64,000 nt of DNA from assembly GCA_019057815.1 (NCBI GenBank), contig JAHLWR010000003.1, positions 69,248 through 133,247 of the forward strand. The letters run 5' to 3'. Every line of letters starts with the position of its first letter. The stretch's first letter is position 1. The notes beneath the pieces were generated by a model. That model saw only the letters and a list, made by a program, of their open reading frames with translations. It made no database searches and had not been told where the DNA came from. Both the position numbers and the translations under genes were made by a program. This DNA is from Candidatus Heimdallarchaeota archaeon (GTDB lineage Archaea > Asgardarchaeota > Heimdallarchaeia > Heimdallarchaeales > Heimdallarchaeaceae). Below, piece after piece: positions 2,841 to 38,543 of this stretch.

Positions 2841-3391
2841 TATAATTTACTTCCCTTTTTTTTTCCTATTAAACAGTAGTCTTCAATTTTTAATTTCCAT
2901 ATTTTTTCTACTTCTATATCTACATCTTTAGCCAATTTAGAAAGATCATCCAAGTTGAATATATTTGTAAGAACTGATAATATAATTTTTCCGTTCTCTT
3001 TCAAAAAAAGAATTCCCTCATTTAGAGTTATAGCAGGTTTTGGGCTATTCTGTAGAATTGAAAAAAATGTTAAAATATCACAAGAGTTTTTTTTAAAGGG
3101 CAACAAATCTGCGTCAGCACATATAAAACAACTATTTGGATGCTTTTTTTTCCCTTCTAAAAGCATTTTGTAAGAAAAATCGCAACATATGATATTAATA
3201 TCATACTGCTGAAGAAAATCTAGAAACAGGGCAGTCCCACATCCAATATCAATTAAGATATCTTCTGATCTCAATTTTATAAATGATAAAATTTCTCTAT
3301 ATTTTGTGAACTGAATTTGTTTGTATCTACTGTCGTATTTATCAGCTGTTGCATCATACTTTCTACGAACTTCTTGTTTCTTATTTTTCAT
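2837..3391 (-). CDS. Class I SAM-dependent methyltransferase.
   Basis: Motif I LIDIGCGTALF (DxGCGxG) and the downstream acidic loop CCDFS. 184 aa. Confidence 0.6.
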   Translation of the reverse strand: MKNKKQEVRRKYDATADKYDSRYKQIQFTKYREILSFIKLRSEDILIDIGCGTALFLDFLQQYDINIICCDFSYKMLLEGKKKHPNSCFICADADLLPFKKNSCDILTFFSILQNSPKPAITLNEGILFLKENGKIILSVLTNIFNLDDLSKLAKDVDIEVEKIWKLKIEDYCLIGKKKGSKLY

Positions 3392-3487
3392 TCTATTAGA
3401 TTATAAATGGAAAACAATTTTAAGTTATTCTCCTATATACAATTAATGAAAACAAACCAAATAAAGGACTAACAAGCGAAGGAGAAT

Positions 3488-3495
3488 AAGGAGGT
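3488..3495 (+). promoter_or_regulatory. Shine-Dalgarno site AAGGAGGT, 6 nt upstream of the GTG start of the RIO2 gene.
   Basis: aaggaggtaaaggtGTG seen directly in sequence. Similar AGGTGA motifs precede both gamma-subunit copies and the beta subunit of the oxidoreductase operon, and the ABC ATPase start. Confidence 0.5.
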
Positions 3496-3501
3496 AAAGG
3501 T

Positions 3502-4392
3502 GTGACACTCTCTCTTAAAGGAGCAAAAATACTCAAAGATTTATCTATTAAAGATATACGTGTTTTACAAATGGTGGAAACCTTACTTAAAAGAGGAGAA
3601 TATGCTCCATTTGAGAAGATAGCTCTTTATTCTGGATTTAGAGAAAAGGATGTAGATATAATGATATCTAGACTCCACAAGTTTAAATTATTACAAAGGT
3701 GGAAAGGACATTACGTAGGTTACACTCTAACTTTTGCAGGTCATGATGCTCTTGCTTTGAATGCACTCTATAACAAAAAAGCTGTCTACGGTGTAGGTAG
3801 AGAGAGAGCAAAAGGAAAAGAGAGCGATATTTACTACGCTATAGACTTCGAAGAAAATGAGGTTATAATCAAAATTAATAGAACAGGAAGACCTAGTTTT
3901 CAACATATAAGAAAGAAAAGAGATTTCTTGGATGGAAAATTCCACTATTCGATATTCTTTTTAGCTGCTATCTCTGCTCAGAGAGAGTATAGTGTTCTTT
4001 CTAAGTTACAGAAATCAAAGCTTTCTATTCCTAAAATCATAGATTACAACAGACACATTATCGTAATGGAATCAATTCCTGGAACAGAACTTGTTAACGT
4101 CCGATATCTGAAAAACCCTTTGAAAGTTCTAAAGGAAACCATCGAATTTGCAAAGAAACTTTACAAAGACTATCATCTTGTCCATGGTGATTTAACCGAA
4201 TATAATATCCTTTATGATGAAAAAAGAGAAAAAATTACAATAATAGATTTTCCACAAACTATTCCTTCTGATCATCCAGAAGCAATGAATTTTCTTTCTC
4301 GAGATTTTGATCACTTATTTGACTTCTTTGGAAAGAAATGGTCTATAAGTATGGAATTAGAATCAGTAATTGACTACATCACAAAAAAATAG
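3502..4392 (+). CDS. rio2: RIO2-type serine/threonine protein kinase (N-terminal winged helix plus RIO domain).
   Basis: N-terminal wHTH-like segment, catalytic loop LVHGDLTEYNIL, metal-binding IIDFPQ. 296 aa, GTG start with strong SD. Confidence 0.75.
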   Translation: MTLSLKGAKILKDLSIKDIRVLQMVETLLKRGEYAPFEKIALYSGFREKDVDIMISRLHKFKLLQRWKGHYVGYTLTFAGHDALALNALYNKKAVYGVGRERAKGKESDIYYAIDFEENEVIIKINRTGRPSFQHIRKKRDFLDGKFHYSIFFLAAISAQREYSVLSKLQKSKLSIPKIIDYNRHIIVMESIPGTELVNVRYLKNPLKVLKETIEFAKKLYKDYHLVHGDLTEYNILYDEKREKITIIDFPQTIPSDHPEAMNFLSRDFDHLFDFFGKKWSISMELESVIDYITKK

Positions 4393-4395
4393 CTG

Positions 4396-6522
4396 GTGAT
4401 AATAATCGTAAAAGAAGAATCGATAATTATTGGAGTAGACATTCTTCCACAGACATCGCCTTTAAGAAAAAATTACTTTGCTGTTTGTGTTTATGATGTC
4501 AAACAAGAAAAAGTGCTGATGGAGTTTGAGAGAGTTAATATTCACAAACTCCTAGGGATAACAACAAGCGCCAAAGCGCACTTGTTAGCAACTGACAATA
4601 TATATGAGCTTGTATTTTCTCCCTCACAAATTCCTTTTCTTTGTACCAGACTTTTACCAGTAACAAAATTAGTTCAGGTTACAGGTTCACCTATCCACGG
4701 TTTTACTCCTCTATCACAATTAATGAGAAATCACGGAATGAAAATATCTGGAAAACTAACTCCACTAAACGCAGCAAAGGCTTGTGCTTTTTTGGCTAGT
4801 AAAAAATTAGGGTATATTATAGAACCTTTTGAAGACGAAACAAAAATAATCGTTTCTAGAACTAGATCAAAAGGAGCTGGAGGTTGGTCTCAAGCTAGAT
4901 ATAGTAGACTGATGGATACATCAGTAAATCAAGAAGCTAAAAAAGTTGAATTAATTCTAAAAGAGCAGAGCTTTGATTATGATAAAAACACAGCTAAGAG
5001 CAAATATGGAGCTCAAAAAGTTATTTTTAACATATATGCTCCTTTTAATGAAGTTACAAAAGTTATCAAGAAACAAAAAGGTGAGATATGTAAAATTAAT
5101 GTTGTACCTATAAACAAAGAAAGAGTAGAATTTATCCCTCTTTCTCAAGAAGTTACAGAAAAATCCAAACTTAAACGATTAATAGTAGGTATTGATCCTG
5201 GATTAACAGTTGGACTATCTATTCTAGATTTAAGAGGTAGGGTCGTAAAAATAGCCAGTTTTAGAGAGGTGAGTAGAGGTCAAATAATACGAGAAATAAC
5301 CCGTTATGGGAAACCTACAATTATTTGTTGTGATGTTTATCCTTATCCCAGCTACGTTGAAAAGATTGCAGCAACTCTAAGTGCTAGAATTTACGCACCA
5401 AAGAGTGTTATGACTGTCGCTGAAAAAAACGAAATGTCTAGAACACTTGCATTGCAACAAGGTATATCTGTTAAAAATGCACATCAACGAGATTCTTTGG
5501 CAGCTGCTTATAGTGGTTATAAAAAATATAGAGGCGAATTTGACAAAATTGATAAAAAATTCTTTAATGATTTTAACCAAACTTTACGGGATGAAATCAA
5601 GAATATGATCGTAAAAGGCAGTTCGATTTCTGATGCTGAACAATTTATAAAAAAAGAATTAGTGGAGGAACGATTACCAATAAAAGCTCCAGCTGACATT
5701 AAAATTATCGAGAAGGAACCCACTGAAGAACAAGCTGATTCATTGATTCAAAGAATAAATTTACTCGAAGAACTCTTAGATTTTGAAAGAAGAAAAAACA
5801 CTGAATTCTATTCTGAGAATAAGGAACTAGAAATAAAAATCGAATACCTTCAAGAGAAGCTTGAAGAAGGGAAAACAGATTATTTTAAACAAATATATCG
5901 AGAGAAAATAATAAGACAGAAAGATAATTTAATCTCTTCTTATAGTGAAAAAATGAGATTATTAGAAAGAGAAATGGAGTTTTTTGCAGATAGAATAGAG
6001 GAGCTTAAACGAGTAGCTTGGTTGAGAGGAAATGAAGGCTGGACTCCACTGAAAGTAATTCGAAAGTTTTCTCAAGATGAAATTATGAAAACTGAAAAAA
6101 CTTATGGTCTAGGTCCTGGGGATTCGGTCTACATCTTGGACACAACAGGTGGAGGAGGGCAAACAGTTGAACTTTTACTTTCCTACAAAATTAAAGCTGT
6201 AATAGGTAATATCGATCAATTTTCATATTATGCAAAGGAAAAATTAGTTGAATTAAATGTCCCCATGGCTGATTCTAGTAGTGTAGAAATTGTAAGAATA
6301 GATGAGATTGCCATTATTAAGGAAGAGGATCTCAATAATATTGTAACAAAAGCTGAGAAAGATTTAGAAAAAATTCAAACAAAGAAAAAAAAGGGTTTTC
6401 TTATTAGCTTGCTTGAGGAGTACAGAGAGGAGAGACAGAAAGAATTTGAAGAATATGACGAGTTAAAGAAGCAGAAAGAACATAGAAGGGATAAAATCGA
6501 TTATACTCGTGAAAATGAATAA
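4396..6522 (+). CDS. DUF460/COG2433-like archaeal protein with two RNase-H-fold (YqgF/RuvC-like) modules and a long coiled-coil region. Abuts rio2 with a 3-nt gap, so probably co-transcribed.
   Basis: IIGVDI and LIVGIDPGLTVGLSILDLRGR...IICCDV segments resemble YqgF/RuvC-like resolvase cores. A long E/K-rich coiled coil follows. 708 aa. Confidence 0.45.
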   Translation: MIIIVKEESIIIGVDILPQTSPLRKNYFAVCVYDVKQEKVLMEFERVNIHKLLGITTSAKAHLLATDNIYELVFSPSQIPFLCTRLLPVTKLVQVTGSPIHGFTPLSQLMRNHGMKISGKLTPLNAAKACAFLASKKLGYIIEPFEDETKIIVSRTRSKGAGGWSQARYSRLMDTSVNQEAKKVELILKEQSFDYDKNTAKSKYGAQKVIFNIYAPFNEVTKVIKKQKGEICKINVVPINKERVEFIPLSQEVTEKSKLKRLIVGIDPGLTVGLSILDLRGRVVKIASFREVSRGQIIREITRYGKPTIICCDVYPYPSYVEKIAATLSARIYAPKSVMTVAEKNEMSRTLALQQGISVKNAHQRDSLAAAYSGYKKYRGEFDKIDKKFFNDFNQTLRDEIKNMIVKGSSISDAEQFIKKELVEERLPIKAPADIKIIEKEPTEEQADSLIQRINLLEELLDFERRKNTEFYSENKELEIKIEYLQEKLEEGKTDYFKQIYREKIIRQKDNLISSYSEKMRLLEREMEFFADRIEELKRVAWLRGNEGWTPLKVIRKFSQDEIMKTEKTYGLGPGDSVYILDTTGGGGQTVELLLSYKIKAVIGNIDQFSYYAKEKLVELNVPMADSSSVEIVRIDEIAIIKEEDLNNIVTKAEKDLEKIQTKKKKGFLISLLEEYREERQKEFEEYDELKKQKEHRRDKIDYTRENE

Positions 6523-27649: not shown

Positions 27650-28429
27650 ATGATTCCTAATAGTTCTGGAACAGGTCAAAAAAAGCTTTTAACTTTCGGA
27701 ATACCAAGTCTTGATGAAATTTTAGGGGGAGGAATACCTCCTGGATCAAATGTTCTAATAGAAGATGCAATAGGTGCTGAAGCGGAGCCTTTTGTTCTAC
27801 AGTTTCTTGCTGAAGGCCTTAAAGCAGGTGAATACGGTTATATTATGTCGACAGAACACCCATACGACTATTATGTCGACATATTGAATGGGATAGGTGT
27901 TAACCCTGATATGCTATCAGCAACTGGGAGATTGCAATATATTGATGCTTTTAGCAACCCTTTTGGATATGCAGATAAGAGAGATTCACACCAACACACT
28001 GTAAACGATTTAAGCCAACCAAGAGAAATTAACGAGACAATAAGAAGAGCGTTTTTACACGTCCAAAATCAAAAAATCATGAAAAGAGGTATAGTCTTAT
28101 CACTTTCATCGATAATTTACGCATCCAACGAATCGAAAAATATCTTATTTTCTTTTCTACAAAATAGATTAGCAAGCAATAAAAATGATGGGTCTGTAAC
28201 AATTTTCTTACTGCATTACGATGCTCATGAACCGTTATTGGTAAGAGCAATAGAACATAATTGTGATGCAACTATAAGAGTATTAAAAGCTAAAACAGAT
28301 AATGATCGACCTATTACAGAAGTCCGAGTTGTTAATGTAAAAGGCAAACCTGAATTAGTAGGAGAACCAGTACTTTTCGAGTTCATAAGTGGAAAAATCT
28401 TACCCTATTATGAAGGTGAAAAGTTCTAG
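27650..28429 (+). CDS. KaiC/RadA-like RecA-superfamily domain protein with a degenerate Walker A, so predicted ATPase-dead.
   Basis: FGIPSLDEILGGGIPPGSNVLIEDAIGAEAEPFVLQFLAEG: the G-PGTGKT position reads AIGAEAEP, so the P-loop lysine is absent. Confidence 0.5.
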   Translation: MIPNSSGTGQKKLLTFGIPSLDEILGGGIPPGSNVLIEDAIGAEAEPFVLQFLAEGLKAGEYGYIMSTEHPYDYYVDILNGIGVNPDMLSATGRLQYIDAFSNPFGYADKRDSHQHTVNDLSQPREINETIRRAFLHVQNQKIMKRGIVLSLSSIIYASNESKNILFSFLQNRLASNKNDGSVTIFLLHYDAHEPLLVRAIEHNCDATIRVLKAKTDNDRPITEVRVVNVKGKPELVGEPVLFEFISGKILPYYEGEKF

Positions 28430-28449: not shown

Positions 28450-29055
28450 TTGATGGGAATTAAAGATAGGTTTAATAATCAATATGAAAAGAATAACACG
28501 AGAAACTTGATGTTTGATTACCTATTTAAAACGATAATTGTTGGAAATCCAGGAGTAGGGAAAACATCAATAACACTCCGATTTGCTACTGGAGTATTTA
28601 AATCAAGATATCTCCCAACAATAGGCGTAGAATTCTCAGTAAAAGATATTGAAGTGAAAGGACAGCACATAAAATTACAATTATGGGATACAGGAAGTCA
28701 TGATCGTTTCTCTTATATTAGACCAATGTATTATAGAGGAAGTTATGGTGTTCTGGTAGTTTGTGATTTAGCAAATGAGCTGACACTTAAAGAACTCGAT
28801 AAATGGTTCACAGAAGTGTACTCCAATACTGAGGAAGTGATACCAGCTATATTGATAGGTAATAAAGCTGATTTGGGTGATAAGCGCTTGATATCGACAG
28901 AAGAACTTTTGCAATATGCTTCAGAAAAGAAAGACGAGTACAAATTAGCTGAAATACCAGTCTATGAGGTTTCAGCAAAATCAGGGCAAAATATTAATGA
29001 TATTTACTATCGCTTAGCAGATTTAATGATTAAAAAATCTAATGAATCGGAATAA
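28450..29055 (+). CDS. Ras-superfamily small GTPase, Rab-like. The true start may be the internal Met at 28510 (MFDYLFKTIIVG...).
   Basis: G1 GNPGVGKTS, Rab-like TIGVEF, switch II LWDTGSHDRF (canonical WDTAGQERF), YYRGS, G4 GNKADL, G5 SAK. No C-terminal prenylation Cys. Confidence 0.75.
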   Translation: MMGIKDRFNNQYEKNNTRNLMFDYLFKTIIVGNPGVGKTSITLRFATGVFKSRYLPTIGVEFSVKDIEVKGQHIKLQLWDTGSHDRFSYIRPMYYRGSYGVLVVCDLANELTLKELDKWFTEVYSNTEEVIPAILIGNKADLGDKRLISTEELLQYASEKKDEYKLAEIPVYEVSAKSGQNINDIYYRLADLMIKKSNESE

Positions 29056-29164
29056 ATAACTTATAACTCTGCTTCTTCTCATGTTATTAATAAAAATCCA
29101 AATTTTCATTTTAATGAGGTTGTATGCAAATATTTAAGTTATTTTTACTCATTATAGTATATAT

Positions 29165-29747
29165 AATAAATTTAGATTGTTTTAGGTGAAAAAACTATGG
29201 CTAAAATAGTTGATGTCCGTATAAACGGAAGAGGAGGGCAAGGAGCTGTGACAGCTTCTCGTCTATTAGCAGAAGCAGCTATCATAGAAGGACAATATGT
29301 TCATGCTTTCCCTAACTTCGGTCCTGAAAGGGCAGGGGCTCCAGTTACGTCATTTTCAAGAATCAGCCCTGAGCCCTTTACAGAGAAAATAGAGGTTTAT
29401 AATCCAGATATCGTGGTTGTAATAGATTCTTCTTTGTTGGGTGATGTTCAAATAGCTGAAGGTTTAAAACCTGGAGGTATAATTATTTGCAACTACGAAG
29501 GGAAATTGGAATCGCTAAAACACTATTTTGAAGGAGTAGATTCTAAAATTTATAAGATATCTGGAACAAGAATTGCTAGGGAAGAGCTGGGAATAAATAA
29601 ACCAAATATGATAATGCTAGGTGCATTGTTAAAAGTTGTTCAGATTGTTAAACTTGAAAGTCTAATCAAAGTAACTAAAGAAAGATTCAAAGGTGTAATT
29701 GGTGAAAAAAATTCTAAAGCTATGAAAAGAGCATATAATGAGGTGAC
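29165..29747. repeat. Duplicated segment, copy A, about 583 bp. It covers the gamma-subunit gene (porG) plus about 30 bp of leader. The internal ~500 bp are identical to copy B at 30295..30877.
   Basis: Direct comparison shows differences only at the edges (first ~30 bp and last ~35 bp). Spacing 1130-1131 bp. Confidence 0.85.
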
Positions 29748-29766
29748 AGGCAATGGTACAATCTAA
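29197..29766 (+). CDS. porG: 2-oxoacid (pyruvate):ferredoxin oxidoreductase gamma subunit, orphan duplicate copy.
   Basis: MAKIVDVRINGRGGQGAVTASRLLAEAAI...; 189 aa. The C-terminus diverges (…VTGNGTI) and no delta subunit follows. Confidence 0.8.
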   Translation: MAKIVDVRINGRGGQGAVTASRLLAEAAIIEGQYVHAFPNFGPERAGAPVTSFSRISPEPFTEKIEVYNPDIVVVIDSSLLGDVQIAEGLKPGGIIICNYEGKLESLKHYFEGVDSKIYKISGTRIAREELGINKPNMIMLGALLKVVQIVKLESLIKVTKERFKGVIGEKNSKAMKRAYNEVTGNGTI

Positions 29767-30022: not shown

Positions 30023-30316
30023 ATGGTATATAAATTTCCAAGCAAAGGATGGATTGAATACTATAAGGACATTCTAAACAGTGAAAAGGGCAAACCATGG
30101 CAAAAAGCTGCTAAAGCGTGGGAAGGCGACTTTCTATTTGTTATAGAACCTGATGAAAAATTAAAGCAAGGGAACACTTTCTACATAAATCTATGGCATG
30201 GAGAATGTAGGAAAGTAGACAGCTCAGAGGATGGAAAAAAATTACCGGAATCTGAGTTTGAGTACAGAGGAATACTTACTCAAGATAGCTTAATTAATAA
30301 ATTTAGATTATTTTAG
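30023..30316 (+). CDS. Hypothetical 97-aa protein between the two gamma-subunit copies.
   Basis: ORF with no recognisable motifs (…WQKAAKAWEGDFLFVIEPDEKLKQGNTFYINLWHGECRKV…). Confidence 0.3.
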   Translation: MVYKFPSKGWIEYYKDILNSEKGKPWQKAAKAWEGDFLFVIEPDEKLKQGNTFYINLWHGECRKVDSSEDGKKLPESEFEYRGILTQDSLINKFRLF

Positions 30317-30877
30317 GTGAAAAAATTGTGGCTAGCATAGTTGATGTTCGTATAAACGGAAGAGGAGGGCAAGGAGCTGTGACAGCTTCTCGTCTATTAG
30401 CAGAAGCAGCTATCATAGAAGGACAATATGTTCATGCTTTCCCTAACTTCGGTCCTGAAAGGGCAGGGGCTCCAGTTACGTCATTTTCAAGAATCAGCCC
30501 TGAGCCCTTTACAGAGAAAATAGAGGTTTATAATCCAGATATCGTGGTTGTAATAGATTCTTCTTTGTTGGGTGATGTTCAAATAGCTGAAGGTTTAAAA
30601 CCTGGAGGTATAATTATTTGCAACTACGAAGGGAAATTGGAATCGCTAAAACACTATTTTGAAGGAGTAGATTCTAAAATTTATAAGATATCTGGAACAA
30701 GAATTGCTAGGGAAGAGCTGGGAATAAATAAACCAAATATGATAATGCTAGGTGCATTGTTAAAAGTTGTTCAGATTGTTAAACTTGAAAGTCTAATCAA
30801 AGTAACTAAAGAAAGATTCAAAGGTGTAATTGGTGAAAAAAATACTAAAGCTATTAGAAGAGCATATAATGAGGTGG
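30295..30877. repeat. Duplicated segment, copy B (operon-linked gamma-subunit copy).
   Basis: See copy A. Confidence 0.85.
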
Positions 30878-30882
30878 AATGA
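30328..30882 (+). CDS. porG: 2-oxoacid (pyruvate):ferredoxin oxidoreductase gamma subunit, operon copy, GTG start.
   Basis: 184 aa, identical to copy A except residue 3 (S for K) and the last ~10 residues. Its stop overlaps the delta-subunit start (ATGA). Confidence 0.85.
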   Translation: MASIVDVRINGRGGQGAVTASRLLAEAAIIEGQYVHAFPNFGPERAGAPVTSFSRISPEPFTEKIEVYNPDIVVVIDSSLLGDVQIAEGLKPGGIIICNYEGKLESLKHYFEGVDSKIYKISGTRIAREELGINKPNMIMLGALLKVVQIVKLESLIKVTKERFKGVIGEKNTKAIRRAYNEVE

Positions 30883-31220
30883 TGAAAAAAAAGGAAATAC
30901 CTCTTGATATCCAAAAGTGGCATATAAACAAGTGGGGAACTGAAAAATTGCCAATTGGTGGAGCTGTACCCTTTCACAGTTCATATGGTTATAAAACAGG
31001 AAATTGGTCAGCGAGGAAACCGTTTATTGATCAAGAAAAATGCACTGGGTGCTTGAATTGCTTCTATTATTGCCCTGATTCTGCAATTGAAATGCAAGAA
31101 ATTGAAGGAAAATACGTAGCAGAATGTGATTTCAACTATTGTAAAGGCTGTGGAATATGTGTGCAACATTGTCCTGTTAATGCAATAGAATGGACGAAAG
31201 TGAGGTGGCACACAAAATGA
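30879..31220 (+). CDS. porD: 2-oxoacid:ferredoxin oxidoreductase delta subunit (2x[4Fe-4S] ferredoxin).
   Basis: CTGCLNCFYYCP and CKGCGICVQHCP cluster motifs. 113 aa. Confidence 0.85.
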   Translation: MMKKKEIPLDIQKWHINKWGTEKLPIGGAVPFHSSYGYKTGNWSARKPFIDQEKCTGCLNCFYYCPDSAIEMQEIEGKYVAECDFNYCKGCGICVQHCPVNAIEWTKVRWHTK

Positions 31221-32407
31221 TAGAACCAATAGTTAAAGGAATGACAGGTGATGAGGCTGTTGCTTGGGCTGCAAAACAAATAAATCCAGATGTAATAGCC
31301 GCCTACCCTATCACACCCCAGACAATTATTGTTGAACGCTTTTCAGATTATGTGAATGATGGTTTAGTTGATACTTCATATATTCCAGTTGAATCAGAAC
31401 ATTCAGCAATGTCTGCATGTGTAGGTGCTTCAGCAACGGGAGCAAGAGTTTTTACTGCTACGGCTTCTGCTGGACTAGCTTTAATGTATGAAATTCTTTA
31501 TGTGGCTTCAGGTATGAGATTACCTATCGTTTTAGCTGTCGCAAACAGAGCTTTTTCAGCTCCAATTAATATACATGGAGAGTGCACAGATCAAATGGTC
31601 TGTCGCGATGCTTCATGGATTTCTCTTTTTGGTGAATCAGCACAAGAGGCATATGATGAAACTATTATGTCTTTCAAAATAGGAGAAAACCCAGAAGTAA
31701 TGCTTCCAACAATGTTTGGTATAGAAGGTTTTATTGTTACACATGCTCTTGAAAGAGTCGATACACTTCCTGACAAAACCGTTAAAGAATTTCTCGGTGA
31801 TAGAAGAGTAATACCAGCCTGTTGTACTTTTAACCCATTCGCTGTAGGAACTTTTGGTTCTTTAGTTTTACAAGATAATTACATGGAACTTAAAAGACAA
31901 CAAGAAGAAGCAATGCAAAAAGCTTATCACGTAACAAAAAATGTTATGGCAGAATTTTCCGAGATTTCAGGAAGGGATTACGAAATAATTGAAAAATATA
32001 ATCTTGAAGATGCTGACTATGCTTTTGTCTCGTATGGAGCAACAGCAGGGAATGCTAAAGCTGTAGTTGATCGTTTAAGAGAAAAAGGAGAAAAGGTTGG
32101 TTCACTAAAAATAAGACTATATCGTCCTTATCCTGTTTCTGACATCTATGAAGCTCTGAAAGGAATTAAAGCCGTATCTATTCTAGATCGTTCTGCAACT
32201 TTCGGTTCTCCAGCAACCATAGCTCAAAACGACTTGGCAGCAGCTCTTTATGGAAAGAAAGATGTTCCTACACTACATGGCTATATTAATGGTCTTGGGG
32301 GACGCGTTTTATTACTTCCTGAAATTGAACAAGTCTATGAACAGTCTAAGAAATATCATGAGGAGGGGAAAGCCTTGACTCAAGATTGGATAGGGTATAG
32401 AAGGTGA
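31217..32407 (+). CDS. porA: 2-oxoacid:ferredoxin oxidoreductase alpha subunit.
   Basis: MIEPIVKGMTGDEAVAWAA...; start overlaps the delta-subunit stop (ATGA at 31217-31220). About 397 aa. Confidence 0.8.
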   Translation: MIEPIVKGMTGDEAVAWAAKQINPDVIAAYPITPQTIIVERFSDYVNDGLVDTSYIPVESEHSAMSACVGASATGARVFTATASAGLALMYEILYVASGMRLPIVLAVANRAFSAPINIHGECTDQMVCRDASWISLFGESAQEAYDETIMSFKIGENPEVMLPTMFGIEGFIVTHALERVDTLPDKTVKEFLGDRRVIPACCTFNPFAVGTFGSLVLQDNYMELKRQQEEAMQKAYHVTKNVMAEFSEISGRDYEIIEKYNLEDADYAFVSYGATAGNAKAVVDRLREKGEKVGSLKIRLYRPYPVSDIYEALKGIKAVSILDRSATFGSPATIAQNDLAAALYGKKDVPTLHGYINGLGGRVLLLPEIEQVYEQSKKYHEEGKALTQDWIGYRR

Positions 32408-34482
32408 GGAATATGATAGAATTACAACGTGTTAACTTAAAAGAAATCTCTAAACTAGAACCTGCTCTAACAGGAGGTCATAGACTCTGCGCAGGATGTG
32501 GTGCAGGTACAATGGCAAGACAAGTAACTCTAGCTGCACAAGCTCTAAAGGAACCTTTTATGATTGTTAATGCCACAGGGTGCCTTGAAGTAGCAACAAC
32601 TATCTATCCATATAATTCATGGACCGTACCATGGTTGCATAATGCTTTTGAGAATGCAGCAGCAACAGCTTCAGGAACAATTGTAGCACTAGAAGCTCTG
32701 AGAAGAAAGAAACAACTAGAGTATGATCAAATAAATATATTAATTTTCGGAGGTGATGGGGGGACGTATGATATAGGTCTTCAGAGTCTATCAGGAGCAA
32801 TAGAAAGAGGACATGATTTTCTATATGTCTGTTATAATAATGGAGCATACATGAACTGCTTAAGTTTAGATACTTTCATTATGACTGAAGATGGTCTTAA
32901 ACGTGTAATTGAAATCCAATTGGGTGATCTTGTTTATGCTTTTGATCAGACTACAGGGGATTTGGTCTTAAAAGAATGTAGCGGTATATATGATAATGGT
33001 ACTAAAGAAGTCTATGAATTGAAAACACTACATCACTCAATAAAAACAACATTAAATCATCCATTTCTGACAGTTCAAATGAGTCGAAAGAAAGATGTGA
33101 ATGCTTTGATTTGGAAAACTCTTGAGCAATTAGAACTAGGAGATGAGATAATCGTTTTAAAGAAATTGACAGGTGGAAAGAGTTATACTTTCAAGAAAAT
33201 AGATCTCTCCGTAAGGGGAGATTTTAAAGTTCATAAAATAAATGAAATCCAACTACCAGAAAGTAGCAATCCAGAGCTAATGGAATTTCTTGGTCTGTAC
33301 ATAGGTGATGGTTGGACAAGATCTCATAAAGCTGAAACAGGATTTTCTTTTCCAGAGAAAACAGATGCGAGAGCGAGGTTAGTCTTCTTATCAAAGAAAT
33401 TATTTAATTTAGAACCTAGTACTACTAGTCTTAATGACGTATATTTATACTCTATAAATCTTGCACGGTTTATCGAATCACTTGGTTTTGGTAAAGGAGC
33501 TAAAAATAAGATTATACCATCTTGGGTCTTTACTATACCTCTTGAAGAAAAAGAAGCATTAGTTAAGGGATTAATGCAATCTGATGGATATATTGTAGGA
33601 AAAAGCAAAAGGTATGTTTCTGCTAGTTATGAATTGCTCAAAACATTAAGACTGTTATTGCAAACCATGAATTATAGAGTTGGAAAAATACATCAACAAA
33701 CAAAGAAAAAAGGAACGTTTGTAGTTTATAGAAAATTACTGGAAGATAGTAGCTACGGTTATGTCTGTTTTAGTAAAAAGAAGGAACCGAATATAGACAA
33801 ATATCTATCACAAATTAAACAGAGAAACTTCTTAGCAGAAAATAAATATTTTAGTTCAGAGAAAATTACTTCCATTGAATTCATTAAGGAAGAACCTACA
33901 ATAGATCTTAGAGTTGAAGATGAACATAATTTCATTGCAGATGGAATAGTCGTCCACAATACTGGAATCCAACGTTCTAGTGGAACCCCTATGTGTGCTT
34001 CCACAACAACCAGTCCTGCTGGAACTGTTATCCCTGGTAAGATTAAGTGGGCCAAACCTCTTCCAGATATTATGGCTGCTCATGGAATTCCAACATTTAC
34101 TGCTAGTCCCTTCTACCATCGCGATCTGATGTCCAAAGTTCAGGCTGGGTTAAACCATGAAGGTCCTGCTTTCCTTCTTGTCGATTCACCTTGCAACTTG
34201 GGTCAACGATACGAGCCTAACATTTCATTAGAAATAGCTAAACTCGCTGTTCAATCTTGTTTCTTCCCATTATACATGACATATCAAGATGAATGGGCAT
34301 TCACTAGTGAATCCTTAAGAATTGCTAATAATCCTGATAAAAAGGTTCCAGTTGAAGATTACCTTAAACTTCAAGGACGGTTCAAACATCTCTTCAAACC
34401 TGAATGGAAGGATAAGTTGGTTGAGATTCAAGAAACAATTGATAATCGTTGGGAACGATTAATAAAGAAAACAAAATACTAA
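32404..34482 (+). CDS. porB: 2-oxoacid:ferredoxin oxidoreductase beta subunit (TPP-binding) interrupted by an intein. 692-aa precursor, 324-aa extein.
   Basis: CAGCGAG...GGDGG TPP motif. Extein junction YNNGAYMN / TGIQRSSGTP matches the conserved PorB AYMNTG(N/I)QRS block. Confidence 0.85.
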   Translation: MRNMIELQRVNLKEISKLEPALTGGHRLCAGCGAGTMARQVTLAAQALKEPFMIVNATGCLEVATTIYPYNSWTVPWLHNAFENAAATASGTIVALEALRRKKQLEYDQINILIFGGDGGTYDIGLQSLSGAIERGHDFLYVCYNNGAYMNCLSLDTFIMTEDGLKRVIEIQLGDLVYAFDQTTGDLVLKECSGIYDNGTKEVYELKTLHHSIKTTLNHPFLTVQMSRKKDVNALIWKTLEQLELGDEIIVLKKLTGGKSYTFKKIDLSVRGDFKVHKINEIQLPESSNPELMEFLGLYIGDGWTRSHKAETGFSFPEKTDARARLVFLSKKLFNLEPSTTSLNDVYLYSINLARFIESLGFGKGAKNKIIPSWVFTIPLEEKEALVKGLMQSDGYIVGKSKRYVSASYELLKTLRLLLQTMNYRVGKIHQQTKKKGTFVVYRKLLEDSSYGYVCFSKKKEPNIDKYLSQIKQRNFLAENKYFSSEKITSIEFIKEEPTIDLRVEDEHNFIADGIVVHNTGIQRSSGTPMCASTTTSPAGTVIPGKIKWAKPLPDIMAAHGIPTFTASPFYHRDLMSKVQAGLNHEGPAFLLVDSPCNLGQRYEPNISLEIAKLAVQSCFFPLYMTYQDEWAFTSESLRIANNPDKKVPVEDYLKLQGRFKHLFKPEWKDKLVEIQETIDNRWERLIKKTKY
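32857..33960 (+). mobile_element. Intein in the beta subunit. 368 aa with LAGLIDADG endonuclease motifs.
   Basis: Begins with Cys (CLSLDTF) and ends VVHN followed by +1 Thr. Motifs LGLYIGDGWT and LMQSDGYIV. Codon positions verified (tgc at 32857, aat at 33958-33960). Confidence 0.8.
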
Positions 34483-34709: not shown

Positions 34710-35060
34710 ATGGCGACAAAAAAACAATTGGCAAATTGGGGCTCTATTCTTGCTCTAATTGGTGGAATTCTTGAAGTAGCTGTAGGAGTCTTGATGTTAA
34801 TAGGAGGAATTCTAGAAAGTATCCTTGATATCTTCAATAAATCTAATTGGCTTGGTCCTTTGGTAGGGAATGATTTAGTCTCTGCTATAATACTAATAGT
34901 TGTTGGAGTTATTGTCATTCTCATTGCGATTGGGAGATTTGGATTAAATTATACTGTAATTGCAATTATCTTCATCATCTTAGGAATTATAGGAAGTAGT
35001 CTTGCTGCTTTACTTATTCTAATTGGTGGAATTCTATACTTAATCGCTGCTTTGAAATAA
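34710..35060 (+). CDS. Small polytopic membrane protein with internal LIGGIL repeats.
   Basis: 116 aa, 3-4 hydrophobic helices, repeated LIGGILE/LIGGILY. Confidence 0.35.
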   Translation: MATKKQLANWGSILALIGGILEVAVGVLMLIGGILESILDIFNKSNWLGPLVGNDLVSAIILIVVGVIVILIAIGRFGLNYTVIAIIFIILGIIGSSLAALLILIGGILYLIAALK

Positions 35061-35063
35061 ACT

Positions 35064-36527
35064 CTAATTTTTTTTCTTTTTCTTTTTCCTTTTTACCTTC
35101 CTTTCTGATCTCTTTTGCTTTAAGAGGATGAAATTATCCTTTGAAAAAGCATATAGTTCTTTGTAATTTTGTGGTCTCCAGAAAGCTAAATGCATTGTTA
35201 AATCATATGTAGAAATTGCAGTTATTAAAAGCAAAAATACGTAGAACATATGTAACCATTTTATTTGCATGATAATCCACACATTAACAACAAAAAGCCA
35301 ACTAATAAGAGCTAGGAAAATTGCTGTTGCAAGAGGCTTCCATTTAATATTCCTGTATAATTGGGTGAAAGCTATTATCAAAAAAGGCATGAAAAAAGGG
35401 TCGTAATATTTGTAATTTCCTCGTGGTTGGAAAAGGTGTGCACCAACTACAAACATCGCGAGAAAAGAATACCAAGCGCCTTTTTTCTTATATAAATGAG
35501 GACCAATTAACATCATAGCAAAATAGCATAAAACAGAGAAAAGAAGAAAAGGCAAATATAATTCATTCATTTCATAATAAAATAAAGCTAAACCTTCCCA
35601 TTCCCAATAAAGAAATGCGTGAAAAGGTGTTGTTGACCATAGTCTCCACGTAGAATGAATAGAAAATTGAACATTGATGGTTGTACCTGTCCAAAGTTGT
35701 CGTCTAAAGTAACTTAATTTATGCATGTAAATCCATGGTAGAGAAATTATTAGTCCAACAACGAATAGAACTAAAAGAAATTCTAGACTTTTTCTAATGT
35801 CATTACGGAAGTAGTAAAGAAAGAAAATTGGTACCAAATATAGGGCAATGAGTTTTGTAAATACAGCTATAGCTAAAAAACTAGCTGAGAGTTTGTGTTT
35901 TTCGCTAATAAGAAAGTATAGGGCGAGTATGGTGAAGAATGTGAACATGTAAGTGTTGAGATAAACAATAGTATTGTAAAAAAGAACTAGAGGTGAAAAG
36001 GTGTAAATTAAGCTACCTGTTAGTGGTAAAACGTATTGCATAACTCCTTCGATTTTCTTTTTCGCGCTTTTTTGAATGATTAAAAATATAAGAATTGTAG
36101 TAAGAGAATCAAAGAAAGCTGGAGCAATTGTTACAGTTTCCCATGCTAACTCCATGCGAGTAAGAGAAGGATGAAAAATTTGAACAAAATATGAAAGAAA
36201 AACAAACATGTAAGCAAAAATCGGTCCATAAACATACCCCACTAATGGCCAAGTCATGTCTCCATAAAGATTCCAATTTTGATACCTAAAAGCATAGAGA
36301 TAAGATCTATAGTAATCAGTTGCATCTTGATATGTTTCCCAATAATGACCTGTAGAGGAAATATACGGAGTGACATCATAGTTGTGCAAGAACCAAGTTT
36401 CTATTATTGCTCTAATAGCGAAAGATATTAAGAATATACTGTAACATATGGCTATCTGCTTCAGCTTCTGATAGTTGTTTGAAGATAAATAGATTCCAGT
36501 TTTGTCGACAACGTTTCTAATTCGCAC
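35064..36527 (-). CDS. Large polytopic membrane protein, possibly a GT-C-fold glycosyltransferase (PMT/ArnT-like), ending in a poly-Lys tail.
   Basis: 487 aa, more than 10 TM helices, aromatic-rich loops. C-terminal KRKKKKKKN. Family assignment is tentative. Confidence 0.3.
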   Translation of the reverse strand: MRIRNVVDKTGIYLSSNNYQKLKQIAICYSIFLISFAIRAIIETWFLHNYDVTPYISSTGHYWETYQDATDYYRSYLYAFRYQNWNLYGDMTWPLVGYVYGPIFAYMFVFLSYFVQIFHPSLTRMELAWETVTIAPAFFDSLTTILIFLIIQKSAKKKIEGVMQYVLPLTGSLIYTFSPLVLFYNTIVYLNTYMFTFFTILALYFLISEKHKLSASFLAIAVFTKLIALYLVPIFFLYYFRNDIRKSLEFLLVLFVVGLIISLPWIYMHKLSYFRRQLWTGTTINVQFSIHSTWRLWSTTPFHAFLYWEWEGLALFYYEMNELYLPFLLFSVLCYFAMMLIGPHLYKKKGAWYSFLAMFVVGAHLFQPRGNYKYYDPFFMPFLIIAFTQLYRNIKWKPLATAIFLALISWLFVVNVWIIMQIKWLHMFYVFLLLITAISTYDLTMHLAFWRPQNYKELYAFSKDNFILLKQKRSERKVKRKKKKKKN

Positions 36528-36704: not shown

Positions 36705-38543
36705 ATGGGTATTTACAAAAATCACGCGAAAAAAGTTTCTGGGGAATTTTACACTCCTGAAATAGTTATTGAATATATGATTCAAAGGATCTTCAATTTA
36801 TTAGAAGATCAAGGAAGAATCACCATGTTTTCTTTTTCAAAATTCATTGATTCGCTTGAGAGAATAAGTTTTTGTGATCCTGCATTAGGCACTGGGAACT
36901 TCATTTTGGGTATTATGCAAAAAATCCGTAGATTAAGTGTTGATTTTCCAGATTATTCAGATAAAAAATACTCTTCTTTTATTAAGAAATTTGTAGGTAA
37001 CAATATTTTTGGTATAGAACTAAGTAGAAATTCACTACAAGTTTGCAAAAAAAGACTGAAAGAAAATCTTTCTCTACCGGAAGAATTCGAATTAAGGAAT
37101 TTAAAACTGGGAAATACACTGGTAGATGAAGATGCATTTGATATCCTTCAAATGGAGGAAACTTCAGTGTTAAAACCTTTTTCTTGGGAAAATTTTTCTG
37201 GAAATAACTCCAAATTTGATATAATTATCGGTAATCCTCCATACTTTAACCTAAAAAAAATGATTCTGTTAGATAATCAAGTAAGACTGTTATTTACATA
37301 TTTAAGAAAATCTAAATTCTGGAGAGGATATTATCGTTCATCTTCTGATATATACTATTATTTTCTCATCAAATCGCTCTTACACTTAAAAGAAAATGGT
37401 TTATTATCATTTATTTTGCCAAATTCTTGGATTGAGAATAAATATGCGGATAAATTAAGAGATTTCCTATTAAACTACGGAATAATTGAGATTGTTGATT
37501 TAGGTCCGATGTTGATATTTAAAGAAGAAGGAAGATGGCTCAATATTGAAAATAGTATTTTAACAGTACAAAACAAACCTGCTTTAGATACTTTCCAAAT
37601 AATAAAAAATGAAGAAATAAGAGTATTGAATCGAGACAAATTTATTGGAGAAATAATGAACAACTATAGCAGATTCAAAATAGCTCAAACAGCTCTTAAC
37701 AAAGAAAAATGGGTTCTTAGTCCAAATTTGTCACTTATTCGAGAAATAGAAAAAAACCCATCTGTTGTTCAATTAGGAGAAATTGCTACAGTAGCTCAAG
37801 GAATGTCACCTGGACTAAAATCGGTTTTCGTTCTTTCAGAAGACGAAGTAATAAAACATGAAATCGAAGAAGATGTGTTAGTACCATTCATTACAAATAA
37901 AAGTATAAAGAAATGGTTCTGCCAAGATTCAAAGAAAAAATGCATATTACCTTCAAAAGTAGAAGACATTAGTGAGTATGTAAACTGTTATAGGTACTTG
38001 ACTTCTTATGAAAAGGAATTACAAAGAGGTCCTGATAGACAAAGATTACTTAAAAAAGGTCTAATAAGGTTTTACGATTTCAGTGTTTACAGGAATCTAA
38101 ACTTGTTTCTTACAGCTAAAAAGAAAATAATCTGTCCTTATAGATCTTATAACAACAGATTTGCTGTTGATTTGAAAGGTTTATTTGGGGCAACAGATAT
38201 CTATGCTATTGTACCTGACGATGAGACTATGCTTTATTATCTCCTAGGCATATTAAACAGCACTATCTTTGAATTCTGGTATAAAGAAGCTGGAAAGCGT
38301 AAAGGGAAAATGCTTGAATTCTTTAGCCATCCTTTAAGAAAATCTCCTATCCCTTTAATTAATGAAAGAGAAGAGATTCAAGATCATGTGAAATCAATTG
38401 TGCAAATGTCAGCAAGGGAGAAGGGAAAAGAAACAACTGAAATTGTCAAGAAACAAGTAATTATTGATCAGCTTATTGTTGAAGGAATGGGAATTAAACA
38501 ATCAGATTTCAATAAAATACTGAAATTGAGTTCAAAATTATAA
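36705..38543 (+). CDS. N6-adenine DNA methyltransferase, gamma class (Eco57I/TaqI-like), with a C-terminal target-recognition region. No adjacent endonuclease.
   Basis: Motif X GEFYTPEIV, motif I DPALGTGNFILG, motif IV IIGNPPYF. 612 aa. Confidence 0.7.
   Translation: MGIYKNHAKKVSGEFYTPEIVIEYMIQRIFNLLEDQGRITMFSFSKFIDSLERISFCDPALGTGNFILGIMQKIRRLSVDFPDYSDKKYSSFIKKFVGNNIFGIELSRNSLQVCKKRLKENLSLPEEFELRNLKLGNTLVDEDAFDILQMEETSVLKPFSWENFSGNNSKFDIIIGNPPYFNLKKMILLDNQVRLLFTYLRKSKFWRGYYRSSSDIYYYFLIKSLLHLKENGLLSFILPNSWIENKYADKLRDFLLNYGIIEIVDLGPMLIFKEEGRWLNIENSILTVQNKPALDTFQIIKNEEIRVLNRDKFIGEIMNNYSRFKIAQTALNKEKWVLSPNLSLIREIEKNPSVVQLGEIATVAQGMSPGLKSVFVLSEDEVIKHEIEEDVLVPFITNKSIKKWFCQDSKKKCILPSKVEDISEYVNCYRYLTSYEKELQRGPDRQRLLKKGLIRFYDFSVYRNLNLFLTAKKKIICPYRSYNNRFAVDLKGLFGATDIYAIVPDDETMLYYLLGILNSTIFEFWYKEAGKRKGKMLEFFSHPLRKSPIPLINEREEIQDHVKSIVQMSAREKGKETTEIVKKQVIIDQLIVEGMGIKQSDFNKILKLSSKL

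Follow-up and report, generated by a model that had tools for sequence, protein, structure and literature searches.

Can an intein sit in the active site of a central energy-metabolism enzyme, and does it still move between alleles there? This question is raised by a stretch of 64,000 nucleotides (nt) from Candidatus Heimdallarchaeota archaeon (assembly GCA_019057815.1, contig JAHLWR010000003.1, positions 69,248 to 133,247), hereafter the window, in which porB, the gene for the beta subunit of a 2-oxoacid:ferredoxin oxidoreductase (OFOR), is interrupted by an insert of 368 amino acids (aa). An earlier, sequence-only reading of this DNA had taken the insert for a LAGLIDADG intein that splits a conserved block near the thiamine pyrophosphate (TPP) fold, and had called such a host unusual. 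From profile matches, predicted fold and comparison with related loci, we consider it very probable that this insert, located in the catalytic loop of PorB, is a class-1 intein of canonical type carrying a double-motif LAGLIDADG endonuclease that is active or recently active.

Reading the DNA placed the insert exactly. It occupies 1104 nt of the plus strand (precursor aa 152-519; Table 1), starts with a TGC codon for Cys at aa 152 and ends with CAC AAT for His-Asn at aa 518-519 (33955-33960), followed by ACT for Thr at 33961; the N-extein ends in ...VCYNNGAYMN and the C-extein starts with TGIQRSSGTP.... The coordinates, the Cys at the intein start, the HN at its end, the Thr at +1 and the split of the AYMN/TGIQRS block are all as the sequence-only reading had given them. 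Hint blocks, on which that reading had made its case depend, were recovered by profile search. Scored against the curated thresholds of the Pfam and NCBIfam models, the insert was well beyond what chance would give, with 55.4 bits for Intein_splicing PF14890 (cut-off 35.8; E = 8e-15), 31.7 bits for LAGLIDADG_3 PF14528 (cut-off 22.5), 27.5 bits for intein_Nterm TIGR01445 (cut-off 24.5) and 27.0 bits for intein_Cterm TIGR01443 (cut-off 15.6). The fold is in agreement with these results: the AlphaFold model of the whole precursor (mean pLDDT 80.4) matched in Foldseek the inteins TliVMA (7qsu, E = 3e-25, TMt 0.74), PhoVMA, PI-PkoII and PI-SceI, with E from 3e-25 to 1e-14, and its extein part matched the PorB of Methanosarcina acetivorans (9bt4_C, TMt 0.83) and oxalate oxidoreductase beta. 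By sequence (phmmer), the closest solved relatives are the V-ATPase inteins 7qsu (E = 3.6e-10) and 7qss (E = 2e-9), both endonuclease-bearing; the endonuclease domain of the insert, in which the LAGLIDADG_3 match spans aa 231-295, aligns to theirs. The residue set of a class-1 intein is complete (C1, T65-x-x-H68, D350, H357, H367-N368 and T+1), and each of the two LAGLIDADG motifs has its acidic residue, D151 and D243. Removal of the intein restores an uninterrupted conserved host protein, as judged from colinearity with PorB and from a natural empty allele (locus L081). The GC content (intein 31.7%, window mean 31.9%, exteins 39-40%) says nothing on the origin of the intein, which is merely at the genome average, and we draw no conclusion from it.

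We asked what exactly the insert interrupts. The spliced 324-aa extein is colinear with the M. acetivorans PorB structure (E = 1.4e-72), with a gap-free junction, and aligns also to oxalate oxidoreductase beta 5c4i_C and to the pyruvate:ferredoxin oxidoreductase (PFOR) of D. africanus (1b0p). In the PFOR alignment, GDG (aa 117-119) corresponds to Asp963, the NN end region to Thr991, Val993 and Tyr994, the residue before the intein, Asn151 (-1), to Asn996, and the residue after it, Thr520 (+1), to Thr997. The entry point thus lies 5 residues downstream of the TPP/Mg motif, in the catalytic loop, which makes precise the earlier placement in a conserved catalytic location near the TPP fold. Asn996 of PFOR is one of the residues lining the pocket for the methyl group of pyruvate; it rotates when substrate binds, and its equivalent in StOFOR1 of Sulfolobus tokodaii influences substrate specificity (PMC5020499). 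In our extein alignment (A1), G117-D118-G119, N146, C29, C32, C60 and C597 are invariant. Three of these cysteines (C29, C32, C60) are in the N-extein and the fourth (C597) is in the C-extein; judging from PFOR structures, we take all four to ligate the [4Fe-4S] cluster proximal to TPP. Because the insert parts the Asn996/Thr997 equivalents and splits the cluster cysteines between the exteins, the unspliced precursor is very unlikely to be active, and efficient splicing would therefore be under selection.

The host assignment of the sequence-only reading, a TPP-binding OFOR beta subunit, stands and can be narrowed to the PorB type. Among NCBIfam families, the spliced extein scores highest with PorB NF008819 (325.3 bits, below the equivalog cut-off of 405) and the adjacent porA with PorA_Arch (455.8 bits, below its cut-off of 550); since both scores are below their cut-offs, we file the protein as a PorB-type OFOR beta subunit with its substrate unproven, pyruvate specificity being likely from these matches but short of established. 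The operon porGDAB, along which start and stop codons overlap, encodes a four-subunit pyruvate/2-oxoacid:ferredoxin oxidoreductase. NCBI starts the identical protein (P0001) at an ATG at 32413, giving 689 aa; its cluster has 9 member sequences from NCBI, ENA, JGI and Logan, and these members, like their close homologues, carry the label Candidatus Heimdallarchaeota or Heimdallarchaeaceae.

Beta subunits with an insertion at the AYMN/TG site, for which the sequence-only reading had proposed a search, turned out to be numerous. A search with the precursor found its TPP_enzyme_C plus intein (plus LAGLIDADG) architecture in at least 120 clusters of proteins 636-702 aa long, some of which JGI names 'pyruvate/2-oxoacid:ferredoxin oxidoreductase beta subunit/intein/homing endonuclease', and a scan with an intein-only alignment confirmed 119 loci in GTDB species-representative genomes. 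Taxon labels, insertion site and stop codons were checked on the best 80 of these 119 loci, and residue invariance on the 79 complete copies. The archaeal labels are Heimdallarchaeota, Woese-, Nano-, Micr-, Aenigmat- and Iainarchaeota and Bathyarchaeia, and the bacterial ones Omnitrophota (one of them a single-cell genome), Cloacimonadota, Aerophobetes and Parcubacteria. All 80 loci share the same site, with (A/G)Y(M)N before the intein, C(L)(S/A) ... VVHN at its two ends and TG(I/V/N)QRS after it; none has a stop codon, and two are cut by contig ends. The intein measures 365-370 aa in every complete copy, and C1, C41, T65, N67, H68, G150-D151-G152-W153, D243, Y245, D350, H357-N358-F359, H367, N368 and T+1 do not vary at all. 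Against L001, the window intein has pN 0.096, pS 0.60 and a dN/dS of about 0.08, comparable to the exteins (Nei-Gojobori); this ratio is uninformative for most Heimdall relatives, in which synonymous sites are saturated (pS 0.6-0.8), so that only L001 and L027 were usable. In a scan of 1.84 billion cluster representatives, the PorB inteins formed a group of their own, with 45-59% identity between representatives; the inteins next to them are no more than 35% identical.

Two further observations concern this family. The 607-aa TPP_enzyme_C protein P0243 carries at the same relative position a shorter intein of about 307 aa, 45% identical and lacking a LAGLIDADG_3 match; it may have arisen from the PorB intein by erosion of the endonuclease and is the sole such case that we saw. 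In addition, the intein-bearing exteins of loci L032, L039 and L021 are only 30-35% identical to the others, their inteins being 66-73% identical. Here, it appears that one intein has entered different paralogous OFOR beta families that have the YMN/TGxQRS motif in common.

We next considered whether the element is mobile. Its distribution is sporadic, filled and empty sites coexist, and intein and host are discordant. PorB alleles of the same family without intein are 72-79% identical to the window extein, as are the intein-bearing Heimdall alleles, and among Heimdall sequences filled/empty pairs occur at extein identities of 99.7% (P0004/P0130), 99.4% (P0007/P0132) and 98.4% (P0003/P0122). 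A further pair is that of L081 (empty) and L083 (filled), which are syntenic across 11-12 kb with a DNA identity of 84-98% and whose sole indel of at least 6 nt is exactly 1101 nt long and located at the intein site. The empty site of L081 reads ...TATAACAATGGAGCATACATGAAT followed directly by ACTGGAATACAAAGAAGT... (L081 positions about 5430-5465); compared with the reconstituted site of the window, its two halves GGAGCATACATGAAT and ACTGGAATACAA match at 17/18 nt upstream and 8/9 nt downstream.

Intein and extein are also discordant in pairwise identity. Across 74 complete loci (2701 pairs), mean identity is 51% for the extein core and 62% for the intein, the intein being the more similar part in 92% of the pairs; one extreme is a Cloacimonadota versus Nanoarchaeia pair with 80% in the intein and 46% in the extein. 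DPANN and Omnitrophota share 44-55% identity with the window in the extein and 55-70% in the intein, and intein-free PorBs of Hodarchaeales (56-59%) are nearer to the window extein than the intein-bearing exteins of DPANN. At short range, the nearest relative, L027, is 94.0% identical to the window over porGDA and the porB N-extein (152 differences in 2529 nt) and 98.7% over the intein (9 differences in 699 nt; Fisher p = 2e-8 versus the flanks), with third-codon-position differences of 71/555 in the flanks versus 2/233 in the intein. As divergence is lower in the intein than in the flanking operon, the intein would be younger than its surroundings. The L027 contig (BPTO01000090.1; locus positions 3001-3710) ends inside the intein, which suggests that the assembly graph branches there since co-occurring strains share the intein sequence.

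Table 1. Positions in the window of the intein, its motifs and the host operon
Feature	Positions	Strand	Basis
porG, gamma subunit, first gene of porGDAB	30328..30882	+	Pfam POR PF01558, 146.7 bits; order kept in L081 and L083
porD, delta subunit, two [4Fe-4S] ferredoxin domains	30879..31220	+	Pfam Fer4, Fer4_21
porA, alpha subunit	31190..32407	+	Pfam POR_N 220 bits, PFOR_II 87 bits
porB precursor open reading frame (ORF), 692 aa including intein	32404..34482	+	GTG start overlaps porA stop
N-extein, aa 1-151, with Cys29, Cys32, Cys60 and TPP/Mg motif G117-D118-G119...N145-N146	32404..32856	+	TPP_enzyme_C (PF02775) match aa 58-152
TPP/Mg-binding motif GDG-X25-NN, aa 117-146	32752..32841	+	Read from sequence; PFOR alignment
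Intein, 368 aa	32857..33960	+	Pfam and NCBIfam matches above cut-offs; Foldseek matches; site identical in 80/80 related loci
Block A nucleophile Cys1	32857..32859	+	TGC codon; invariant in 79/79 copies
Block B T65-L-N-H68 (TxxH)	33049..33060	+	T65, N67, H68 invariant in 79/79
LAGLIDADG homing-endonuclease domain, approx. intein aa 136-330	33262..33846	+	LAGLIDADG_3 match; VMA intein alignment
LAGLIDADG motif 1 LMEFLGLYIGDGW, intein aa 141-153, catalytic Asp151 (LMEFLGLYIGD151GW)	33277..33315	+	G150, D151, G152, W153 invariant in 79/79
LAGLIDADG motif 2 KEALVKGLMQSDGY, intein aa 232-245, catalytic Asp243 (KEALVKGLMQSD243GY)	33550..33591	+	D243, Y245 invariant in 79/79; G244 in 78/79
Block F EPTIDLRVEDEHNFIADG, intein aa 346-363	33892..33945	+	D350, H357, N358, F359 invariant in 79/79; TIGR01443 above cut-off
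Block G IVVHN, then C-extein Thr+1	33946..33963	+	H367, N368, Thr+1 invariant in 79/79
C-extein, aa 520-692 and stop codon; starts TGIQRS; invariant Cys597	33961..34482	+	Extein alignments

Several points weigh against an intein that splices and homes. For this allele, as for every relative, splicing and DNA cleavage are deduced from sequence and not from experiment. The uniform length and strong conservation are not expected from the classic homing cycle, in which the endonuclease frequently decays after fixation, and part of this conservation could reflect another constraint. The low divergence of the intein between the window and L027 could in part be an effect of metagenome assembly, given where the L027 contig ends. 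Many contig labels of metagenome-assembled genomes are automatic and possibly wrong ('uncultured Planctomycetia/Clostridia/Methanosarcinales'); the cross-domain breadth of the distribution is for this reason less certain than its existence. One alternative, in which the insert would be an assembly artefact or a domain that does not splice, could draw on little more than the modest scores of the N- and C-terminal splicing regions taken alone (27 bits each). It is already refuted by computation, as four curated models are above their cut-offs, the fold resembles solved inteins, the catalytic residues do not vary, the identical protein recurs in 9 member sequences and the architecture in 119 species representatives, and the insertion is in frame and codon-exact; we leave it practically no chance. 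In the course of the analysis, we rejected both an assembly chimera and a non-splicing insertion domain, and also a BIL/Hedgehog-type Hint domain, a type without C-terminal His-Asn and nucleophile and without endonuclease, and a split or mini-intein, the window intein being contiguous and full length.

The remaining alternatives accept splicing. It is unlikely, in our view, that the endonuclease has been retired and that a fixed, vertically inherited intein simply goes on splicing in this lineage with no more homing. In its favour, the closest intein-free relative of the window allele has only 79% extein identity, and an intein fixed at an essential active site can be lost only by precise deletion and could therefore persist without homing. 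However, neither the two catalytic Asp nor the motif residues around them vary among the 79 copies, and conservation is as high in the endonuclease domain as in the splicing domain (mean column conservation over these copies 0.71 versus 0.72). The filled/empty polymorphism of sister Heimdall lineages at 98-99.7% extein identity, and an intein that is 98.7% identical to that of L027 between flanks at 94%, point in the same direction. A second idea is quite improbable: after co-option, the intein would act as a conditional splicing switch that responds to redox state or oxygen and keeps an oxygen-labile Fe-S/TPP enzyme from maturing until its surroundings turn reducing. An inactive precursor would then build up under oxidising conditions, possibly through a Cys1-Cys41 or Cys1-Cys-9 disulfide, and would mature fast upon anoxia. 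Conditional splicing through a disulfide of Cys1 is documented for other inteins. In the PorB family, the extra intein Cys41 is invariant, Cys occurs at extein position -9 in 65 of the 79 copies, conservation is unusually uniform, with no mini-intein derivative among the 79, and the nearest relatives outside PorB include SufB inteins; if true, the switch would explain why the same length and the same extra Cys are found in 79/79 copies over Asgard, DPANN and several bacterial phyla. Yet closely related organisms carry intein-free alleles and so can dispense with the intein, and its patchy, discordant distribution is the pattern of a selfish element. Novikova et al. (PMC4760082) propose conditional splicing in general terms.

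Returning to a canonical, homing intein, the conserved residues together with the established intein pathway allow a mechanism to be proposed. The 692-aa precursor would be translated, and Cys1 would carry out an N-S acyl shift at Asn151-Cys152, with Thr65 and His68 of block B assisting. The Thr+1 hydroxyl would attack the thioester to give the branched intermediate, and cyclisation of Asn368, helped by His367 and by Asp350 and His357 of block F, would release the intein. An O-N shift would then remake the Asn151-Thr520 peptide bond, so that PorB, now 324 aa long, has its native loop ...GAYMN-TGIQRS... again. The predicted tryptic peptide across the junction of spliced PorB is GHDFLYVCYNNGAYMNTGIQR, and the junction of the precursor reads ...AYMN-CLSLDTF.... 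For homing, the freed intein or the precursor would cut an intein-free allele between ...GCATACATGAA(C/T) and ACTGGAAT..., and the intein would be copied in by repair. Such homing would lead to a patchy, cross-lineage distribution and, as it is directed into the highly conserved YMN/TGxQRS coding sequence, to spread over diverse OFOR beta subunits. The domain identity, the exact site, the invariant catalytic residues, the filled/empty polymorphism and the discordance of intein and extein are shown by the data; that the window's own copy both splices and cleaves DNA is inferred.

The TliVMA and PhoVMA inteins (7qsu, 7qss, 7qst), the best solved matches, consist like the window intein of a Hint domain with an inserted double-motif LAGLIDADG, but identity is only about 20% and they occupy another host, the V-ATPase A subunit, and another site; theirs is an ATPase, the classic kind of intein host, that of the window a TPP/Fe-S oxidoreductase. 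PI-SceI and PI-PkoII (1vde, 2cw7) share bifunctional design and fold with the window intein (Foldseek E = 1e-14 to 2e-15) and are the experimentally characterised model for the homing mechanism proposed here. At 13-16% identity, they differ in that their splicing and cleavage are demonstrated, those of the window intein predicted. The nearest inteins outside the PorB family, matching over the full length and with both LAGLIDADG motifs, are metagenomic ones of SufB, T4-like portal and ClpP proteins (P0244, P0253, P0255, P0249, P0251, P0262). Their hosts and sites are different and identity is only 29-34%, versus 45-83% within the PorB family; because of this gap, we treat the PorB inteins as an allele group of their own. 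The M. acetivorans PorB aligns end to end with the host and keeps the cluster Cys, the GDG...NN motif and the YMNTGIQRSSGTP loop, but has no intein where the window gene carries 368 aa.

Was the host as unusual as the sequence-only reading held? For the described intein repertoire the claim stands, as known inteins cluster in proteins of replication, repair and nucleotide metabolism, and about 75-83% of their hosts belong to COG categories L and F (PMC4760082). For sequence databases it does not, given the at least 120 clusters and 119 species representatives: public sequence data contain the PorB intein in abundance, and its domains are already picked up by automated annotation. Our full-text literature search found no intein in POR or another OFOR, an absence that stays unproven, as the supplementary tables of the Novikova survey lay outside the search; in PMC3655853, PMC4853749, PMC4760082 and PMC10710043, too, no intein in POR/OFOR was found and co-occurring terms were unrelated. 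The kind of element and its mechanism are well known and mechanistically ordinary; what is new is the insertion allele in an atypical, energy-metabolism host. This host, a central enzyme of anaerobes, is a counter-example to the idea that intein hosts need to be DNA-metabolism proteins, and the interest of the family lies in its wide cross-domain distribution and in the clean evidence of ongoing mobility. The PorB intein can serve as a marker of gene flow among co-occurring uncultured anaerobes, across the boundary between archaea and bacteria. It also carries a warning for annotation: with about 690 aa, such PorB genes fail to reach family cut-offs, and pipelines for that reason label them 'hypothetical' or, as NCBI does here, 'thiamine pyrophosphate-dependent enzyme'.

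We also looked at the genes around the operon. The order is CDP-archaeol synthase, KaiC/PAXNEB-like ATPase, Ras-family GTPase, porGDAB, Eco57I/MmeI-like methylase, rhodanese and deoxyhypusine synthase, and the Heimdall loci L081 and L083 keep it. The Ras/Roc/Arf-family small GTPase (28450-29055, plus strand; Pfam Ras 147.6 bits) adjoins the por operon upstream, and its arrangement with the KaiC/PAXNEB-like ATPase (27650-28429, plus strand) is also found in both loci; a eukaryote-like GTPase fits an Asgard origin. Between the GTPase and the operon, the window has a direct repeat of about 600 nt (29145-29745 and 30276-30876) made of porG and about 50 nt upstream of it, of which 495 nt (29218-29712) are 100% identical. 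It yields a second, stand-alone porG (ORF 29197-29766) with a 530-nt spacer before the operon. In L027, L081 and L083, the Ras GTPase gene is directly followed by a single porG, and the 1131-nt porG insertion would be either specific to the window lineage or an assembly artefact. The spacer holds a 97-aa ORF (30023-30316, plus strand) that extends into the second repeat copy. Pfam gave no match for it at E < 0.01, and it may represent a truncated gene carried in by the rearrangement.

Downstream, between porB and the methylase (34710-36527), two ORFs of 116 aa (plus strand) and 487 aa (minus strand) look like hydrophobic membrane proteins and have no Pfam match. Both are absent from L081 and L083, which have a NosD/beta-helix gene after the methylase. 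The methylase itself (36705-38543, plus strand) is an Eco57I/MmeI-like N6-adenine methylase with a TaqI_C specificity domain, of a type IIG-like restriction-modification kind, and it stands beside the por operon in Heimdall relatives too.

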